Shown here: in pieces, positions 21,486 through 46,138 of the stretch | Numbering within the stretch: position 1 is the stretch's first letter | How the letters are laid out: every line of letters begins with the position of its first letter | Assembly: GCA_019058315.1 (NCBI GenBank) | Contig: JAHPZH010000002.1 | Location: 1,165,910 to 1,229,909 of the forward strand | Source of the DNA: Candidatus Helarchaeota archaeon | GTDB lineage: Archaea > Asgardarchaeota > Lokiarchaeia > Helarchaeales > RDOG01 | Direction: 5' to 3' | Length of the DNA stretch: 64,000 bases | Notes under the pieces: model-generated | What the model saw: only the letters and a program-made list of their open reading frames with translations | What the model was told of the DNA's origin: nothing | Database searches by the model: none | Position numbers and translations under genes: made by a program

Positions 21486-22358
21486 ATGGCTTTCTTCATA
21501 GGCTGCACAATCCCAGGTACTGATATGGGTTATGAAGCTTCGGCGAGGAAAGTCTATAAAGCACTTGGCGTATTTTTAAAAGATGTAGAAGAATTTAGTT
21601 GTTGCGCACCTTCCCCCATAGCAACAATAGACCGTGATACAGCATTAGCTATATCCGCTAGAAACCTATGTATTGCAGAAAATTTAGGATTAGATATAAT
21701 TACATTTTGTAATGGATGTTTTGAAAATCTAAAACATAGTAATCAAATTCTTAAAAAAGATGACAATTTAAGGTCTAAAATAAATAAGATTTTATCCAAA
21801 ATTGGGTATGAGTTCAAAGGTAAAATCAAAGTTAAACATGGTTTACAAGTTCTCATAGAAGACATAACACTAGAAAAGGTAAAAGAAAAGATAAAAATTA
21901 ATTTAAATGGTTTTAGATTTGCCGCATTTTATGGTTGCCATGCTACAAGACCTTCAAATATAATTCAGTTTGATAATCCTGAAGATCCTTCATCATTAGA
22001 TGATCTAATTGAAGTATTAGGTGCTGAAAGTATAGATTATGAAGGTAAAAGAGTTTGTTGTGGAGGGTTTGTCAAAGGATTGGCTGAAGAAGTGGCATTA
22101 GATCTAATTCGTTCTAAATTAAAGGTTTTAAAGGAAATGAATGTTGATGCTGTAATTGTATCTTGTCCATTTTGTTTTTTTCAATTTGATTCCGGTCAAA
22201 AGGAGATTTTAAGAGATTTCAGTGAAAGATATGATATTCCCGTTTTAAATTTTACCGATTTATTAGGAATTGCTCTAGATTTGGATATAAAATCATTAGG
22301 TCTGAATACACATAGAGTTAAAGTTAAGCCGCTATTAAAAAAATTAGAAAGTCTGTGA
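21486..22358 (+). CDS. hdrB: Heterodisulfide reductase subunit B
   Basis: Two CCG-type domains (GC...SCC...CNGC; YGCH...CCG...CPFC). Confidence 0.92.
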   Translation: MAFFIGCTIPGTDMGYEASARKVYKALGVFLKDVEEFSCCAPSPIATIDRDTALAISARNLCIAENLGLDIITFCNGCFENLKHSNQILKKDDNLRSKINKILSKIGYEFKGKIKVKHGLQVLIEDITLEKVKEKIKINLNGFRFAAFYGCHATRPSNIIQFDNPEDPSSLDDLIEVLGAESIDYEGKRVCCGGFVKGLAEEVALDLIRSKLKVLKEMNVDAVIVSCPFCFFQFDSGQKEILRDFSERYDIPVLNFTDLLGIALDLDIKSLGLNTHRVKVKPLLKKLESL

Positions 22359-22363
22359 TTTGT

Positions 22364-22900
22364 ATGATAGAAGATTCAAAAACGGTAAACTTTGACGATT
22401 TAGATCCAGAATTTGCTCAAAAAGTTATGGAAGAAATGGGTGAAGATATCCTTGCATGTTTTAATTGCGGATGCTGTACCGGTGGATGCCCCATTGTTCC
22501 TTGGGAAATGAATATGCGAAAAATAATACAAAAGGTCATACTTGGATTTACAGAAGGTGTTCTTTCAAGTAAAATAATTTGGTTTTGCACAGAATGTAAA
22601 GTATGTGGAGAGAGATGTCCCCAGAAGGTTAAACCATTTGAAATAATAATAGCATTACGTCACTTGGCGATTGAAAAAGGAATAATTCCACTTGTTTATA
22701 GAGCTATGGCATTAAATTTAGAGAAATCAGGTAGAGTTGCAGAAATTTCGGAAGCAGTTGAATTAAGACGTGAACGTTTAAACATACCAGAAGCAGGTCT
22801 TACTTTACCAGAAAAAGTAATTAAAGAATTAAAAACAATTTTAACTGAGACATCATTTGATAGGATATTAAAGGAGAAAGATTATAAAGAGGAGGAATAA
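22364..22900 (+). CDS. hdrC: Heterodisulfide reductase subunit C
   Basis: CFNCGCCTGGCP and WFCTECKVCGERCP. Alternative GTG start at 22355. Confidence 0.9.
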   Translation: MIEDSKTVNFDDLDPEFAQKVMEEMGEDILACFNCGCCTGGCPIVPWEMNMRKIIQKVILGFTEGVLSSKIIWFCTECKVCGERCPQKVKPFEIIIALRHLAIEKGIIPLVYRAMALNLEKSGRVAEISEAVELRRERLNIPEAGLTLPEKVIKELKTILTETSFDRILKEKDYKEEE

Positions 22901-22903
22901 TTT

Positions 22904-24220
22904 ATAACAGAACCTGCTGTTTTGGTCATTGGTGGGGGTATTGCTGGAATTCAAGCAGCCCTAGATTTAGCTGGACAAAATATTAAGACTTATTTAGTTG
23001 AGAAAAAACCAAGTATAGGGGGACATATGGCTATGTTTGATAAGACTTTCCCGACTTTAGATTGTTCTGCATGCATTTTAACACCAAAAATGGTTGAAGT
23101 AGAAAAACACTCAAAAATACAGCTTCATACATATACTGAAGTAAAAAAAATTGAAGGATCGGTTGGAAATTTTAAAGTAGAATTGCTGAAAAAGCCAAGA
23201 TACGTTCAAGAAGAAATTTGCACTGGCTGTGGTGATTGTGTAGAAGTCTGTCCAGTTGAAGTTCAAAATGAGTTTGATAGAGGTTTTGGGGTAAGAAAAG
23301 CGATTTACATCCCATTTCCCCAAGCTATTCCTTTGAAATACATCATAGATAAAGAATCTTGCATCTCCTGTAAGTTATGTAATACAACATGCAAAGCCAA
23401 TGCGATAGATCATGAAGAAAAACCACAATATATTGAAATAAAAGTATCTGCAATTATAATTGCAACAGGTTACGAGTTATTTGACGCAGATTATAAAATA
23501 AACTATCCTAATTATGGTTATAAAAAATATCCTAATGTCCTCACAACCATAGATTTTGAAAGATTTTTAAATGGTAGTGGACCAACCCAAGGTCACCCTA
23601 TTCGATTATCAGATGGGAAAATTCCTAAAAGTATTGCCTTTATTCAATGCGTAGGCTCTCGCGATCCAAACCAAGGTGTAGCAAATTGTTCAAGAGTATG
23701 TTGCATGGTGTCAATTAAACAAGCAATTCTGGCAAAGGAGCATATTCCTAATTGTGAGATATCGATATTTTATATTGATATACGAGCATTTGGAAAGTAT
23801 TTTGAAGAATTTTATAATATGGCTAAAGAGAGATATAAAATAAAATTCATTAGGGGAAAAGTAGCTGAAATCAATGAAGATAATGAAACAAAAAATTTGA
23901 TTGTGAAAGTAGAAAATACTGAAACCGGTGAATTTCTCAATAAAGAGGTAGATCTCGCTATTTTATCTATAGGAAGCAAGATTTCGAAAGGTTCGGTCGA
24001 AATTAAAGATATATTAGAAAATAAATTCCATATTCCGTTTGTTCGTGATGATGGATTTTTCTTTCAAATAGATACAGAAATTTCTGCAGTAGATACAAAC
24101 ATTCCTGGAATTTATGTAACTGGATATGCAACTGGACCAAAAGATATTCCTGATTGTGTAGCTTATGGTAGTGCAGCTGCAACGAGAGCTGCATTAATTG
24201 CAAGAGAGGTGGAATTCTGA
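22904..24220 (+). CDS. hdrA: HdrA-like subunit lacking N-terminal and C-terminal domains (probable ATA start)
   Basis: GGGIAG, KTFPTLDCSAC, inserted 2x[4Fe-4S], CVGSR..CSRVCC. GGAGG lies 8 nt before an in-frame ATA at 22904. Confidence 0.85.
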   Translation: MTEPAVLVIGGGIAGIQAALDLAGQNIKTYLVEKKPSIGGHMAMFDKTFPTLDCSACILTPKMVEVEKHSKIQLHTYTEVKKIEGSVGNFKVELLKKPRYVQEEICTGCGDCVEVCPVEVQNEFDRGFGVRKAIYIPFPQAIPLKYIIDKESCISCKLCNTTCKANAIDHEEKPQYIEIKVSAIIIATGYELFDADYKINYPNYGYKKYPNVLTTIDFERFLNGSGPTQGHPIRLSDGKIPKSIAFIQCVGSRDPNQGVANCSRVCCMVSIKQAILAKEHIPNCEISIFYIDIRAFGKYFEEFYNMAKERYKIKFIRGKVAEINEDNETKNLIVKVENTETGEFLNKEVDLAILSIGSKISKGSVEIKDILENKFHIPFVRDDGFFFQIDTEISAVDTNIPGIYVTGYATGPKDIPDCVAYGSAAATRAALIAREVEF

Positions 24221-26190
24221 TGGTTGAAAATAAGGTCAGACTAGGTGTTTTTTTATGTAGTTGCGGCGTAAACATAGGTGGGATAATTAATATTCAAGAA
24301 TTAAACGAGTTTTGCAAAGGTTTAGATGATGTTATTTTCGTTGGTGAATCCGAATTTGTATGTTCTTCCATAGGGCAAAATTTAATAAAAGAAAATACTG
24401 AAAAATTCAACCTAAATCGAATTCTAATTGCTTCATGTAGTCCGAAAATGCATGAAGATACGTTTAGAAAATTATTAAATGAAATTAATATCAATCCATA
24501 TCTTCTTGAAATTGTAAATCTTCGAGAACAATGTAGTTGGTGTCATTCAGATGATCCTAAAGCAGCTACTGAAAAGGCAAAATCCTTAATTAAAATGGCT
24601 GTGGCTCGACTTAGAAATCTGGAACCACTACCAACAAAAGAAGTCGGCATAAACAAGACCACTTTGATAATCGGAGGAGGTGTAGCTGGAATGCGAGCTG
24701 CGCTTGACATAGCAGAAAGAGACTATCAAGTATTTTTACTAGAAAAAAAGTCATATCTTGGTGGCCATATTGTGCAACATAATGTCCTATTTCCTAATAA
24801 CAGTAATCCATTAGAAATTTATGAAAGATATATAAAAGAATTTGAATATCGAAAAATCAAAGTATTAACAAATTCTCAATTAGAAGATATTGATGGCTAT
24901 ATTGGTAATTTTACAGTTACAATAAAATCTAATCCAAATTTCGTGAATAGCTCTTGTAATTTATGTGGAGAATGTGAAAAAGTATGTCCAATTGAAGTTG
25001 AAAATGAGTTTAATCTTTCCTTAAATAAAAGAAAAGCAATATATCTACCTTTTTCAAATGCTTTTCCTAAAAAATTTACCATTGATAACACTTCCTGCAC
25101 GAAATGTGGAAAATGTGTTAAAGTATGTAAGCAAAGTGCAATTAATTTGAATGCTCATGAAGAAGTTCAAAGGATTAATGTCGGAACTATAATTGTTTCC
25201 ACTGGTTTTGATACTTATGAACCCATTGATGAGTATGGTTATGGGACTTCACCTAATATTTTAACTTTACTTCAGATGGAAAGAATATTAAGCAAAACTG
25301 GACCTACAAAGGGTAAGATTTTAAGAATATCTGATAAAAGGGTACCAAAAAGAATTGTCTTTATAGGTTGTGTAGGATCTCGGGAACCAACTCATGTAAA
25401 TACACCACGACATTATTGTTCACGAATTTGTTGCTCCTCAATTATGATGAATGCAATACATATAAAGGAAGAGGACCCCGATATTGATGTTGTAGTTTTA
25501 TATCGTGATATCCGAACTCATGCTAGAGGGAATGAAGATTTATATACCCGAGCAAGAAAAATTGGGGTAAAATTCATTAGATTTTCTATCGATAACAAAC
25601 CTAAAGTTATTATAGATTCAAATAAAGATTTGTTACTAGTCAAAGTTTATGATAATTCTCTTCAAATAAATTTTGATATCCCTTGTGGCTTAATTGTGTT
25701 AGCATCTGCTATAATTCCCCCTTCTAATATAGGAAATTTGACATCTATACTAAGATTAACAACTTCACAAGATGGATTCTTTCAAGAACTGCATCCGAAA
25801 TTGGCTCCATTAAATACAATTAATAAAGGAATTTATATTGCTGGAGCTGCCCAAGCACCAAAGGATGTTATTGATAGTATTTCCCAAGCTTCTGGAGCAG
25901 CAGCAAAAGCTTTAATTCCAATGGAACAAGGTTATATTCCAATTGAATCAGCCATAGCCCACATCGATGAAAGTCTGTGCAGTGGTTGTGGAGTGTGTAT
26001 AGAATCATGTGCATTTAATGCTATTGAATTGGAAGCAACACAAAATATAAAAACTGCTCAAATTATTGAAGCTGCCTGTAAAGGTTGTGGTGCATGTGGA
26101 GCAAGCTGTCCCTCTGGAGCTATAAAAATTTTACATTATACAGATAAACAGATATATTCAGCTTTAGAAGCACTTTTAAAATCAACTTAA
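24220..26190 (+). CDS. hdrA: HdrA-like subunit, full-length architecture
   Basis: CSCG/VCS/SCSP/EQCSWCH N-domain, GGGVAG, inserted and C-terminal ferredoxins, CSRICC. Confidence 0.92.
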   Translation: MVENKVRLGVFLCSCGVNIGGIINIQELNEFCKGLDDVIFVGESEFVCSSIGQNLIKENTEKFNLNRILIASCSPKMHEDTFRKLLNEININPYLLEIVNLREQCSWCHSDDPKAATEKAKSLIKMAVARLRNLEPLPTKEVGINKTTLIIGGGVAGMRAALDIAERDYQVFLLEKKSYLGGHIVQHNVLFPNNSNPLEIYERYIKEFEYRKIKVLTNSQLEDIDGYIGNFTVTIKSNPNFVNSSCNLCGECEKVCPIEVENEFNLSLNKRKAIYLPFSNAFPKKFTIDNTSCTKCGKCVKVCKQSAINLNAHEEVQRINVGTIIVSTGFDTYEPIDEYGYGTSPNILTLLQMERILSKTGPTKGKILRISDKRVPKRIVFIGCVGSREPTHVNTPRHYCSRICCSSIMMNAIHIKEEDPDIDVVVLYRDIRTHARGNEDLYTRARKIGVKFIRFSIDNKPKVIIDSNKDLLLVKVYDNSLQINFDIPCGLIVLASAIIPPSNIGNLTSILRLTTSQDGFFQELHPKLAPLNTINKGIYIAGAAQAPKDVIDSISQASGAAAKALIPMEQGYIPIESAIAHIDESLCSGCGVCIESCAFNAIELEATQNIKTAQIIEAACKGCGACGASCPSGAIKILHYTDKQIYSALEALLKST

Positions 26191-26198
26191 TTGGAGTA

Positions 26199-26636
26199 AT
26201 GAATTTGGATAATGAGTTTAATCCCCGAATTGTAGCATTTTGCTGTAATTGGTGTGCATATGCAGGTGCAGATCTAGCGGGAACCAGTAGGATGCATTAT
26301 CCTCCAAATATCCACATAATTCGAGTCATGTGCTCTGGCAGAATAGACCCTGAACTAATTTTAAATGCTCTCCGTTTAGGTGCAGATGGGGTTTTAATTG
26401 CGGGGTGCCATCCAGGGGATTGCCAGTATATATCTGGAAATGAAAAAACAATTAGACGTTTTAAGATATTAGAGAAATTATTAACGCAATTTGGTTTCAA
26501 TAAAGAACGTGTGCGATTAGAATGGATTTCTGCTTCTGAATCAACAAAATTTGTGGAAAAAGTCAAGGATATGGTTGCAAAAATAAAAAAAATAGGAAAA
26601 AATCCTTTATGTAAAAATTTAAAAAGTATTAAATAA
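26199..26636 (+). CDS. mvhD: [2Fe-2S] hydrogenase/Hdr connector subunit D (all-Cys form)
   Basis: FCCNWCAYAGAD, RVMCSGR, GCHPGDC, WISASE. Confidence 0.93.
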   Translation: MNLDNEFNPRIVAFCCNWCAYAGADLAGTSRMHYPPNIHIIRVMCSGRIDPELILNALRLGADGVLIAGCHPGDCQYISGNEKTIRRFKILEKLLTQFGFNKERVRLEWISASESTKFVEKVKDMVAKIKKIGKNPLCKNLKSIK

Positions 26637-28836: not shown

Positions 28837-30483
28837 ATGACTACTATTAAGATTAATGACGAGTGGCTCCTCTATGCGTTAAAGAATGAAGTTGGAAAAA
28901 CTTTAACAAAGAAAAAACTTGCTGATATCACATATTTAGATTGGAGCGAATATAGAGATGAAGCTGGGGAAACTTGGGAACCAATAGGTGACATTCAAGG
29001 GCTTGAATATTGTATTAATCTAGAGGTCTTATCATTTGACGGCAATTCAGTTACAGATCTTTCACCTTTAAGTGGTTTAAAAAAACTAAAAGAAATTTGG
29101 CTTGTGGGTAATTCCGTAGAAGATGTGAGTCCAATTAGCAAATTACCAAACCTTGAAAAGCTCGTTCTAGATCTAAATTCCAGCCTTAAAGATATAAGTC
29201 CACTATCAAGTCTCCCATCTATTAAATATATCAATATAAGTAGTACGAGTGTAAGAGATATTACCCCCCTACAAAATTTAAACACTCTTGAAGAATTAAG
29301 TTTATATATTGACAATTTAGACTTATCTCCAGGAAGTAAAAATCGCGAAGTTTTAATTAACCTTATAAATAAGGGAGTTAAGGTAAATAATAGAAAAATC
29401 GAAGAACTTACCAAAGAAGCAGCATCAAAAATCAAGTTAAAAAAATCAGCTTCCTTTGAAGATAAGCTAAGAGCTCAAGGGGCTTTTAACATTACTAAAA
29501 TAATTGTTAATAAAGGAATAAACGGAATTGATGGAGAAAGAGGTAATACTCCATTACATATGGCTTTAGAAAATTATTTTATCCTGAAAGAAAATCTAAT
29601 AGATCAAACCGCTGTTGTTCAATTACTTATAGAAAATAAAGCTGATTTGAATAGTAAGAATAAAAATGGACACACACCTCTAAGCTATTATTTAAATAAT
29701 AACAAGGATGCTGAATTAAAAATAGTGAAAATCCTAATAGATAATGGAGCAGATGTCAATTTATCTTATGGTTATACAAATCCTCCTATTTATTATGCAA
29801 TAAAGGAAAATAGGACTGATATCATAAATTTACTTATAGAATCTGGAGCATCAGTTAATGAACCTATAATTTTCAATGCTCTTTGTCAACATGGATATAT
29901 AGATATTGTTGAAAGGCTCTTAAAAGATGGGTATAAGACCAATCAAAAAGAAAAAAATTTTGGAAGAACACCACTTTTTTCTGGAGTTGAGGGAAATCAG
30001 ATTGAAGTAATACAAATTCTCCTAAATTATGATGCTGACGTGAATTTTAAAGATGAACTTGGAGCCACACCCTTACTTGTTGCTAATAACAAAGAAGTTC
30101 TTAAAATATTGCTTGAGAATGGTGCCGATATAGATGCAGTTGATGAATATGGTCAAAATGCTTTATTTGGTTTGTTAATAGGAGAAAGGTATGAATGTAT
30201 TAAGTATCTACTAGAAAAAGGGATTCAAGTAAATATTAAAGATAAATATGGAAATACTCCTTTACATAGAATTCATTATGACTCATATAACCCTCAAGAG
30301 TCTTTAGATATAATAAACCTCCTTGTGAAATATGGTGCTGATGTAAATGCCCGTAATAATGAAAACAAAACACCTTTAGATTTGTTGCAAAATCCAAGTA
30401 TGATAAAAAGACTAAATTTCTTAATGAAAAAGAAGAAAAAGCAGAAAAAGAAACAGAAAAAAACAAAAAAGAAAAAAAAGTAG
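28837..30483 (+). CDS. LRR + ankyrin-repeat protein with poly-Lys C-terminus
   Basis: Internalin-like LRRs (LSPLSGLKKLKEIWL), then multiple G.TPLH..ADVN ankyrin repeats. Confidence 0.88.
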   Translation: MTTIKINDEWLLYALKNEVGKTLTKKKLADITYLDWSEYRDEAGETWEPIGDIQGLEYCINLEVLSFDGNSVTDLSPLSGLKKLKEIWLVGNSVEDVSPISKLPNLEKLVLDLNSSLKDISPLSSLPSIKYINISSTSVRDITPLQNLNTLEELSLYIDNLDLSPGSKNREVLINLINKGVKVNNRKIEELTKEAASKIKLKKSASFEDKLRAQGAFNITKIIVNKGINGIDGERGNTPLHMALENYFILKENLIDQTAVVQLLIENKADLNSKNKNGHTPLSYYLNNNKDAELKIVKILIDNGADVNLSYGYTNPPIYYAIKENRTDIINLLIESGASVNEPIIFNALCQHGYIDIVERLLKDGYKTNQKEKNFGRTPLFSGVEGNQIEVIQILLNYDADVNFKDELGATPLLVANNKEVLKILLENGADIDAVDEYGQNALFGLLIGERYECIKYLLEKGIQVNIKDKYGNTPLHRIHYDSYNPQESLDIINLLVKYGADVNARNNENKTPLDLLQNPSMIKRLNFLMKKKKKQKKKQKKTKKKKK

Positions 30484-40245: not shown

Positions 40246-41562
40246 ATGTCAAGAGAAATTAAAATTGAACCAGTTACCCGTTTGGAAGGTCACGGAAACG
40301 TTACACTTAAACTCGGACCTGGTGATAAAGTTGAAGACGTTCAATTTAATATCACATCAACAAGATTCTTTGAAAAATTCTTAGAAGGCCGACCCGCTGA
40401 ACATGCTCCTCGAATTGTTCCTCGAATTTGTGGTATTTGTCCAATTCCACACCATCTTTCGAGTGTAAAGGCAGTAGAAGCAGCATGGGGTATCACTCCT
40501 CCAAGACCTGCGGATAAATTAAGAGAACTCGAGATCAATGGTAAACAACTTTCAAGTCACGTTCTTCATATAGCTGCATTACAACTACCAGACTTACTTG
40601 CAGGACCGTTAGCTCCTCCCGAAAAAAGAAATGTCGTTGCTGTTATCAATGCTCTACCAGATATAGGAAAGGCAGTTTTAAGAGCAATGAGATATGGTCA
40701 AGATATTTGCGCAATTGTGGGAGGAAAATCAGTTCATCCTGTAACTGGAATTCCTGGAGGTATGACAAAGCCTTTAGCAGAAGATGACAGACAAAAACTA
40801 TTAAAGCAACTCCCAGAGATTGTAGAGATCGGTAAAACCTTAGTTGAGGTTGGAAGCAAACTTGTTAACGACTATATGCTGGTTATAAAGAATTTTGCAG
40901 TCACCCCAACATATTATATCGGAACTGTTAAACCTGATGGTGGTTTAACTATTTGGGACGGAAACATTCGCATAATGGACAAGGAAGGAAAGATTGCAGC
41001 AGAATTTCCAGCGAAAGATTATTTAAATTATTTTGGAGAATATGTTGCTCCTCATTCTATGGCTACACACATGTATCTTAAACAGGCGGGATATCCTGAA
41101 GGAATTTGGCGAGCTAATACTTTAGCACGAGTTAATGTGGCAGATAAAATGCAAACTCCATGGGCACAAGAGCTTTTTGAAGCTTTTAGAAGTACAGTTG
41201 GGCGACCTTGTCATATGACATTTGCTTATATCTGGGCAAGACTTATTGAGACTATCCAAGCTGTGGAAAAGATAAAAACATTGTTGGAAGATCCTGAGAT
41301 TGTATCAACAGATGTAAAATTAGCAGATGTTGAACCGAAAGCTGGTAATGGTGTAGGACAAACAGAAGCTCCAAGAGGTAATCTAATACACAATTATTGG
41401 ACAGATGATAACGGAATTATAACTAAAGCAAACCTTGTAGTGGCAACAAACAATAACATTGGTGGCATTGAATTAACCATAAAAACTGCAGCAAAGCAAA
41501 TTTTCGAAGATAAAATTGTTGAGTCAATAGCTGACAAATTACCCGAACCAATGATTAAGTAA
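40246..41562 (+). CDS. vhuA: Group 3c [NiFe(Se)] hydrogenase large subunit lacking the C-terminal L2 motif
   Basis: IEPVTRLEGHG, L1 RICGICPIPH, EAPRG. No DPCxxC before the stop. Confidence 0.92.
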   Translation: MSREIKIEPVTRLEGHGNVTLKLGPGDKVEDVQFNITSTRFFEKFLEGRPAEHAPRIVPRICGICPIPHHLSSVKAVEAAWGITPPRPADKLRELEINGKQLSSHVLHIAALQLPDLLAGPLAPPEKRNVVAVINALPDIGKAVLRAMRYGQDICAIVGGKSVHPVTGIPGGMTKPLAEDDRQKLLKQLPEIVEIGKTLVEVGSKLVNDYMLVIKNFAVTPTYYIGTVKPDGGLTIWDGNIRIMDKEGKIAAEFPAKDYLNYFGEYVAPHSMATHMYLKQAGYPEGIWRANTLARVNVADKMQTPWAQELFEAFRSTVGRPCHMTFAYIWARLIETIQAVEKIKTLLEDPEIVSTDVKLADVEPKAGNGVGQTEAPRGNLIHNYWTDDNGIITKANLVVATNNNIGGIELTIKTAAKQIFEDKIVESIADKLPEPMIK

Positions 41563-41574
41563 AAGGTGTAAATC

Positions 41575-41730
41575 ATGAATGAAGAAGAATTAATGGAAAG
41601 AAAATTAAACTTAATCGAAATGGTCATCCGCAATTTCGATTGCTGACTTTCGTGCGCTGCACATTTGATCGTCAAAAATGAGAAGGATGAAATAATTTTC
41701 GAGAAAGAGATTGTAATTGGTTCTGGGTGA
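41575..41730 (+). CDS. vhuU: Selenoprotein hydrogenase subunit U, 51 aa (MNEEELMERKLNLIEMVIRNFDCULSCAAHLIVKNEKDEIIFEKEIVIGSG)
   Basis: AGGTG SD. In-frame TGA at 41644-41646 falls in the L2 motif DxUxSCAAH that vhuA lacks. SECIS-like hairpin at the 3' end. Confidence 0.93.
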
Positions 41731-41785
41731 AGTGTTGGCAAAAAACTGAAGTCAACACAGACAGACCCCGCAAGGGTCGAACCAA
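41717..41785 (+). promoter_or_regulatory. Eukaryote-like (K-turn) SECIS element
   Basis: GUGAA (41727-31) and AGAC (41759-62) give tandem G.A pairs. 8-bp stem GUGUUGGC/GUCAACAC with A-rich loop. Outer helix UUGGUUC/GAACCAA. Confidence 0.82.
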
Positions 41786-41796
41786 CTCTTTTTTTT
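41786..41796 (+). terminator. Oligo-T archaeal terminator after vhuU/SECIS
   Basis: CTCTTTTTTTT directly after the structured element. Confidence 0.55.
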
Positions 41797-44415: not shown

Positions 44416-44946
44416 TCATTCATATAATAGTTCTGTAAAAACTTCTGTTAATTTATTTATAGCTATCTTAACTATATCAGAAATTCCTTTTTCATTAAAG
44501 ATATGTTCTGCTTGAATCCCAATTATAACTATTTCTAATTCTAGTAGAGAAGCATAAAGAAAATCCAGAAGAAGATTTTTTGACATAGAATGGGAAGAAA
44601 TTGAATACAAATGCATTTCTTCTTTTAGGATAAATTCAATAGTTCCTGGAGCTTTTTTAAGATCTGCAGCATCAAGTAAAATTAAATGCGTTGGGCTCCA
44701 TTCAAATATTTCATTGATGAATGTATGAGGCGCAGTTTCCCCCTCAACTAAAAAAACATCAAATTTTGATTTAAGATTTTTCGATATTTTCTTCAAATTC
44801 CGAACAACTTGTAATCCTGCGATATCATCATAGCGAAACTCGTTTCCTACCCCTACTATCGCGATACGTGAATTTGAATTGAATTTTTTATTTAATTCAT
44901 TTTGAATTATTTCACAATTTTCATCGATATGTCTATATTTCTCCAT
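44416..44946 (-). CDS. Hydrogenase maturation endopeptidase (HycI-like)
   Basis: GVGNEFRYDDIAG, LLDAA, SSH. Confidence 0.9.
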   Translation of the reverse strand: MEKYRHIDENCEIIQNELNKKFNSNSRIAIVGVGNEFRYDDIAGLQVVRNLKKISKNLKSKFDVFLVEGETAPHTFINEIFEWSPTHLILLDAADLKKAPGTIEFILKEEMHLYSISSHSMSKNLLLDFLYASLLELEIVIIGIQAEHIFNEKGISDIVKIAINKLTEVFTELLYE

Positions 44947-45055: not shown

Positions 45056-46138
45056 TTGAACTTTAGAGACCCTCAAACTGCTAAAAAAATATCTGGTCAT
45101 ATAAAAAAAATTGCTCCAAATGATTACGAAATTAAATTTATGCATGTTTGTGGGACTCATGAACAAGTTGTTAGTCAGTATGGGTTGCGTTCTTTATTAC
45201 CCGAAAATGTGGAAATTATTGCAGGACCCGGTTGCCCAGTATGTGTTGTTCCTTCTCAAGAAATCGATGAAGCTATCTATTTAGCAAGAGAAGGTAAAAT
45301 ATTAACAACCTTCGGAGATATGAGTCGAGTACCTGGTACTGATTTATCATTACATGATTGTAGAAGTGAAGGCCACGATATTAGAATTGTTTATAGTCCT
45401 GAAGATGCAACTCAACTAGCTCGAGAAAATCCGGACAAGGAAATTGTATTTTTTGCTATAGGATTTGAAACAACCGCTGCTATCGTTGCAGCAGAAATAT
45501 TACGAAATCCCCCGAAAAACTTTTCTATAATTTGTGCACATAAAACCATTCCCGCAGCAATGCATTTGTTAATAGGATCGGGCGAGCTTCAGATTGATGG
45601 ATTCATACTACCCGGTCATGTTTCAACAATCATCGGTGCTATTCCCTTCGAAATTTTTCCTAGGGCTTTCAGAATGCCAGTTGTAATAGCAGGGTTTGAA
45701 CCAGTTGATGTTCTTATGTCAATAGCTTTGTTATTAGAACAAATTCGTGATAAAACGCCTAAAGTAGATAATGAATATTCAAGAGTTGTAAATTATGAGG
45801 GAAATATAAAAGCTCAAAAGATGATTAATGAAGTTTTTGAAATAGCAACTGTAAATTGGCGAGGTATTGGTCGAGTAGCTGAAGGTGGCTATATTTTACG
45901 AAATAAATTTGAAAAATATGATGCTAGAAAGAAATTTAATGTAAAAATTGAGAAATCAAGAGATATCCATCCTGGTTGTTCATGCCATCTAATAATGGTA
46001 GGTAAACTTACCCCAGATAAGTGTAAATTATTTGGAAATGAATGCACACCTAATCATCCTTACGGACCTTGTATGGTTAGTCATGAAGGTACGTGTAATA
46101 TATGGTTAAAATTCGGCGGTAAATTAAGATTTACTTAA
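45056..46138 (+). CDS. hypD: Hydrogenase maturation protein HypD
   Basis: HVCGTHE, GPGCPVC, GFETT, PGHV, GPCMVSHEGTC. Confidence 0.97.
   Translation: MNFRDPQTAKKISGHIKKIAPNDYEIKFMHVCGTHEQVVSQYGLRSLLPENVEIIAGPGCPVCVVPSQEIDEAIYLAREGKILTTFGDMSRVPGTDLSLHDCRSEGHDIRIVYSPEDATQLARENPDKEIVFFAIGFETTAAIVAAEILRNPPKNFSIICAHKTIPAAMHLLIGSGELQIDGFILPGHVSTIIGAIPFEIFPRAFRMPVVIAGFEPVDVLMSIALLLEQIRDKTPKVDNEYSRVVNYEGNIKAQKMINEVFEIATVNWRGIGRVAEGGYILRNKFEKYDARKKFNVKIEKSRDIHPGCSCHLIMVGKLTPDKCKLFGNECTPNHPYGPCMVSHEGTCNIWLKFGGKLRFT

Follow-up and report, generated by a model that had tools for sequence, protein, structure and literature searches.

VhuU, together with a SECIS element that overlaps its stop codon, has already been described in Lokiarchaeota (Mariotti et al. 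2016, PMC4989117). In that description, the lokiSECIS opens with AUGA, followed by a stem of 9 bp whose loop of 11 nt starts with As, and by GA (AA in VhuU) behind the stem; in the VhuU element the AUGA takes in the stop codon. A later survey of Asgard archaea (Huang et al. 2024, PMC11227280) counts VhuU under FrhA/MvhA/VhuU, a family of hydrogenase alpha subunits that was found in 68% of the Sec-using Asgard archaea, and mentions for frhA-type genes a lower stem of the form [U/C]GG_C[C/U][A/G]. In M. voltae, the VhuU peptide that was detected is about 26 aa long (PMC9929600).

We analysed a stretch of 64,000 nucleotides from a Candidatus Helarchaeota archaeon (hereafter the window), which contains a vhuA gene and, directly behind it, a small gene with an in-frame TGA. 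The product of this gene is a selenoprotein already known from Lokiarchaeota and Asgard archaea, for which a curated NCBI model exists too, and the biology of the locus confirms published work without extending it. On the sequence evidence presented below, we hold it to be very probable that vhuA and vhuU encode the split large subunit of a group 3c-like [NiFeSe] hydrogenase, in which UGA is read as selenocysteine under the direction of a lokiSECIS and the C-terminal tail is cleaved.

The vhuA and vhuU genes

The vhuA gene (40246-41562, forward strand) encodes a group-3c-like [NiFe(Se)] hydrogenase large subunit of 438 aa (PF00374, E 1.8e-25). Its translation holds the N-terminal ligand motif RICGICPIPHH, which satisfies the L1 pattern RxCGxCxxxH, and terminates in ...KLPEPMIK-TAA. 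DPCxxCxxH is absent from the translated 438 residues, which bears out the initial annotation, where vhuA had been said to lack the C-terminal Ni-binding L2 motif. The best PDB matches of VhuA are 9sfi_g, 5odc_F and 9sw2_F. The first of these (418 aa) gave an E value of 7.8e-126 and was covered over its full length, and the unsplit MvhA 5odc_F (473 aa) was aligned over residues 4-417 only. The NCBIfam VhuA model NF041785 aligned over positions 3-417 of 418, with a score of 462 bits as compared to an equivalog cut-off of 800.

The ATG of vhuU, at 41575, lies 12 nt past the vhuA stop and is preceded at a distance of 6 nt by a ribosome-binding site, AGGTG (41564-41568, forward strand), read from the sequence. 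The open reading frame (41575-41730, forward strand) comprises 51 codons including that of Sec and ends with a UGA stop at 41728-41730; with the internal TGA as U, the translation is MNEEELMERKLNLIEMVIRNFDCULSCAAHLIVKNEKDEIIFEKEIVIGSG. The nickel-ligand motif L2, D-C-U-L-S-C-A-A-H, is encoded at 41638-41664, the TGA for Sec occupying 41644-41646; the motif contains U24, C27 and H30, the His codon ending at 41664. It is followed by a C-terminal extension of 21 codons (41665-41727), which is presumed to be cleaved behind the His. Sequence and translation thus agree with the initial annotation, which had described an unannotated frame 12 nt behind vhuA, with an AGGTG Shine-Dalgarno sequence and a TGA-LSCAAH reading; its placement of the TGA at 41644 and its counts of 30 residues ending with the His and 21 in the tail are all right. 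As for the motif, the TGA followed by LSCAAH is present as claimed, whereas the Sec is preceded by DC and not by the DP of the DPU form that had been quoted as known.

With C substituted for U, the peptide matched positions 4-41 of 45 of the NCBIfam VhuU model NF041786 (E 7.8e-19) with 67.2 bits, the cut-off being 70. Considering that both this score and that of VhuA fall below their cut-offs, the two proteins are diverged orthologues. VhuU residues 8-31 align to the 27-residue VhuU chain 9sfi_M, where the window side reads ERKLNLIEMVIRNFDC-U-LSCAAHL and the TGA at 41644 stands opposite the X (Sec) of the structure. Further alignments of VhuU were obtained with residues 424-453 of the unsplit MvhA 5odc_F and with FrhA 9r51_A, in the latter case over the C-terminal end and its extension, which the VhuU tail resembles (HMIIKDYDDKIIGEK vs HLIVKNEKDEIIFEK). 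This homology to solved and curated chains indicates that the large subunit is split in the same way as in Methanococcales.

Conservation across the in-frame UGA

If the TGA at 41644 were an ordinary stop, vhuA would be a truncated, inactive remnant and the frame downstream would be untranslated. In fact, under table 11 the frame ends after 23 codons, the list of open reading frames lacks vhuU, and TGA serves as a normal stop elsewhere in the genome (hdrA, hdrC and vhuU itself). Comparison with relatives speaks against this explanation, to which we attach very little credence. Of 40 related genomes, 36 have the read-through peptide with its in-frame TGA (E<1e-5). The DNA pattern for DCUxxCAAH was matched in 140 out of 400 genomes from the phylum, as against 0 matches for the reversed control pattern; this recurrence is beyond chance. 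The motif DCULSCAAH is invariant in the 20 loci that were fetched, all of which have a tail of 21 residues and a gene end of the form G-(S/L)-G-TGA. Across the same loci, the six LSCAAH codons past the TGA show 526 synonymous vs 0 non-synonymous pairwise differences; the variation per codon position is 0/0/0.32, confined to third positions, and a three-base periodicity is seen in the VhuU tail as well. Neither an ordinary stop nor a sequencing error can account for these findings. The existence of a SECIS and of a Sec machinery (see below) likewise argues against an ordinary stop, as does the fact that a profile search of the genome found a single PF00374 large subunit, namely vhuA, and no Cys-type back-up. 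The genome is 94% complete, so that counts of one, for the large subunit as for the protease described below, are provisional.

The initial annotation had named TGC or TGT at 41644 in reads as grounds against Sec; the likely source run, which is not independent of the assembly, is identical to the sequence analysed here and shows TGA with no variant. Contigs of relatives from an independent sediment study cover 41467-41733, and no change at 41644-41646 is among the differences listed for them, which is a weak indication in the same direction.

A third possibility is that the real gene lies on the minus strand, where 41394-41741 is open under table 11 for 115 codons, and that the plus-strand peptide is a by-product. 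A gene caller could choose this frame over vhuU. It runs antisense to the 3' end of vhuA, which it overlaps by 169 nt, and to vhuU, and it has no Pfam match, while the plus frame shows three-base periodicity and matches both the VhuU model and the VhuU structure. The minus-strand frame is most likely spurious, and its being the real gene has a practically negligible probability.

The SECIS element

A SECIS of the lokiSECIS type was located at 41717-41785 of the forward strand by single-sequence folding, a covariance model and compensatory changes. The lower stem pairs 41717-41723 with 41779-41785 (UUGGYU with ARCCAA). The core GUGA occupies 41727-41730, its UGA being the stop codon of vhuU, and the upper stem, which pairs 41732-41739 with 41751-41758 and encloses an A-rich loop of 11 nt, is followed by GA at 41760-41761. 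On the 3' side, between lower and upper stems, an extra GC hairpin is formed by 41764-41768 and 41774-41778; the portions of PMC4989117 and PMC11227280 used here make no mention of it. A run of eight T directly behind the element (41789-41796, forward strand) is likely to be an archaeal transcription stop. The element of the window reads GUGA / AGUGUUGGC / AAAAAACUGAA / GUCAACACA / GA and has one A-A mismatch, at position one of the upper stem, beside eight pairs of the Watson-Crick or GU type. The elements of relatives read AUGA / AUAUCCAAU / AAAAAUAAUAG / AUUGGAUAU / AA and fit the lokiSECIS exactly (9 bp, 11 nt).

When each sequence was folded alone, the three helices recurred in 19-20 of the 20 loci, and the SECIS was found at a constant 84 nt downstream of the Sec UGA in all fetched loci. 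In every locus, the upper stem goes with a K-turn-like core. Since the MAFFT alignment had the lower stem out of register on its 3' strand, a covariance model (R1) and a re-alignment were used. R1 found all 20 loci, with 54-98 bits. In its alignment, which is fitted to the model and therefore biased towards the structure, 78.7% of the cells are paired as compared to at most 52.9% with slid partners; six to seven rows are misregistered in helix 1, which lowers the paired percentage of that helix. Eleven pairs change on both sides, including all nine of the upper stem, and 0 of 500 shuffles reached the observed values.

A scan of the window against Rfam at gathering thresholds found nothing. This result is no argument against the SECIS, considering that Rfam is without a lokiSECIS family. 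The scan of the whole genome with R1 gave only weak further matches (at most 23 bits), and the model is too specific for listing the selenoproteome. In one related genome (G006, L020:1922-1999), a degenerate second vhuU 3' end with a SECIS is present about 290 nt past the first SECIS. This copy reads ...AEIQTGSG-TGA... and scores 35.6 bits to R1; because no intact frame lies upstream of it, it looks like the remnant of a duplication.

Selenocysteine machinery and the identity of the inserted residue

The initial annotation had proposed a search of the genome for tRNA-Sec, SelD, PSTK, SecS and EFSec, and all of these are present. A tRNA-Sec with the anticodon tca (C5:127141, 63.5 bits) is adjoined by SepSecS, found at 482 bits by profile search, and by EFSec, whose score of 287 bits is above its cut-off. 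The match of the PSTK-like gene, 170 bits, is below the curated cut-off of 290. SelD, which has an in-frame TGA of its own, is encoded at C11:696903-697751. The Sec cluster spans C5:124363-128115 in the order EFSec, SepSecS, tRNA-Sec (tca), and then an AIR-synthase/SelD-like frame (46 bits), which is not the true SelD, the latter being that on C11.

The UGA might also be read through by near-cognate decoding as Cys or Trp, so that the centre would be [NiFe] and not [NiFeSe]. Cys-type paralogues with DPCISCATH do occur in relatives. Such decoding would nonetheless leave a dedicated SECIS at a constant distance in all loci to be explained, along with the clustering of the genes for tRNA-Sec, EFSec and SepSecS. 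Moreover, the solved VhuU has Sec at the equivalent position, and TGA is conserved throughout although a Cys codon is a single mutation away. We regard read-through as Cys or Trp as very improbable. The assignment of TGA 41644 to Sec, as first put forward, is instead supported by the alignment to 9sfi_M, the match to the NCBIfam VhuU model and the coding signature past the TGA, and further by the SECIS at the expected place and the Sec machinery in the genome.

Maturation of VhuU

The minus-strand frame at 44416-44946, which had been called a HycI-like protease, was confirmed as a HycI-family hydrogenase maturation endopeptidase by PF01750 (E 1.9e-13; 50.8 bits vs a cut-off of 23) and TIGR00072 (76.7 bits vs 47.45). 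Divergent from it lies hypD (45056-46138, forward strand; PF01924, E 1.5e-142; TIGR00075, 459 bits), which acts in maturation of the [NiFe] centre. The candidate enzyme for removal of the VhuU tail is most likely this endopeptidase, the only PF01750 member found in the 94% complete genome; the pairing of a single such protease with a single PF00374 large subunit lends the assignment support short of proof. We infer that mature VhuU has about 30 aa, possibly less Met1. In the solved structure, chain 9sfi_M extends one residue past the His, and the exact cleavage site is therefore uncertain.

Partner genes and genome context

A cluster of hdrB-hdrC-hdrA-hdrA-mvhD lies at 21486-26636 on the forward strand (Pfam CCG, Fer4 and FAD/Fer4; FlpD, E 1.5e-55) and is likely, on the evidence of these domains, to be the electron-bifurcating partner module. 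Its two adjacent hdrA genes encode 432 and 656 aa. No in-frame UGA was found before the natural stops of the five genes, all of which are Cys-type; the cluster has Cys where some Loki HdrA/VhuD genes have Sec. Candidate Sec codons in the first hdrA copy, in hdrC and beyond mvhD, obtained by forcing read-through of TGA, turned out on inspection to be ordinary stops. Just downstream of the cluster, 28837-30483 encodes a protein of 548 aa with leucine-rich repeats and many ankyrin repeats.

The neighbours of vhuA-vhuU in this genome encode a membrane protein on one side and an amidohydrolase on the other. The small subunit VhuG (NF045875, 245 bits) is encoded some 60 kb upstream of vhuAU, contiguous with hdrC and hdrB (C5:1145676-1148472; L036:6677-9473); at 473 aa it is long, and only its first approximately 200 residues match VhuG models. 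A relative that belongs to another family has the arrangement vhuG-vhuA-vhuU-hdrC-hdrB (L039:4946-9260), and in a relative from the same family (G001) vhuAU stands alone too. The difference between the order in the other family and the split layout observed here indicates that vhuAU moved out of the cluster in the family of this genome. Wetland metatranscriptome contigs, about 90% alike, span the gap between the two genes, from vhuA to the start of a relative's vhuU, and give a weak hint that vhuA and vhuU are co-transcribed.

Proposed mechanism and implications

In the mechanism that we propose, VhuA and VhuU together would form the large subunit of a cytoplasmic hydrogenase of the Mvh/Vhu type (group 3c-like, [NiFeSe]), to which VhuA would contribute the N-terminal pair of nickel ligands and VhuU the C-terminal pair, Sec24 (UGA 41644) and Cys27. 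EFSec and Sec-tRNA(Sec) would recode UGA 41644 as selenocysteine, under the direction of the eukaryote-like lokiSECIS, which lies 84 nt downstream and has vhuU's own UGA stop in its core. Insertion of the metal would come first. The 21-residue tail behind His30 would then be cut, most likely by the protease encoded at 44416-44946, and a VhuU peptide of about 30 residues would remain lodged in VhuA. Probable partners of the enzyme are MvhD, HdrABC and the VhuG encoded 60 kb upstream.

All 20 fetched VhuU loci have Cys directly before Sec. The paralogous large subunits of Cys type in relatives have the canonical DPC(I/L)SCATH and mostly end right behind the His. The Cys of DCU might be more than a neutral replacement of the conserved Pro: joined to the Ni-ligating Sec by a reversible selenenylsulfide, like the CU pair of thioredoxin reductase, it could serve the Vhu hydrogenases of Asgard archaea as an internal switch for redox or oxygen protection, or alter maturation. 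We consider this unlikely; the DNU of a same-order relative, which has DNULSCSAH at the motif, counts against the selenenylsulfide switch.

Standard gene callers miss vhuU, and the only group-3 [NiFe] hydrogenase of the genome would consequently look broken; recognition of the small gene would restore a functional H2-activating enzyme. This has a bearing on metabolic models of Asgard archaea that involve H2-dependent or H2-evolving syntrophy with HdrABC-MvhD. Since the genome search found no Cys-type back-up large subunit, the hydrogenase is probably selenium-dependent. The departures from the textbook VhuU are small: the DCU motif, the GUGA_GA core, the third hairpin of the SECIS, the detached vhuAU and the lack of a detectable Cys-type back-up.

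Comparison with known systems

The locus is closest to the VhuU of Lokiarchaeota and other Asgard archaea, as described in the two studies cited above. It shares with them a peptide of some 50 residues that contains one Sec and is encoded immediately behind vhuA, a lokiSECIS with a stem of nine positions, an 11-nt loop starting from AAAAA and a core whose UGA is the stop codon, and a lower stem of the type reported for frhA-type genes. It differs from the published forms in the core, which is GUGA_GA instead of AUGA_AA, in the unpaired A-A with which the upper stem begins, and in the detachment of vhuAU from vhuG-hdrCB.

With respect to the VhuU and VhuA of Methanococcales (NF041786 and NF041785; chains M and g of 9sfi), the site of the split, the position of the Sec ligand and the xSCAAH sequence are the same, and the precursor carries a C-terminal extension in both cases. 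However, the motif is DPU in Methanococcales and DCU here, the tail encoded here is longer (21 aa), and the SECIS is of the GAA_A type there and eukaryote-like here. A Cys-type back-up large subunit such as the Vhc of Methanococcales was not found in this genome. As regards the unsplit MvhA (5odc_F, group 3c), VhuA (residues 4-417) and VhuU (residues 424-453) together cover the whole large subunit; what is in MvhA one polypeptide with Cys (DPCLSCATH) is here encoded by two genes, with Sec.
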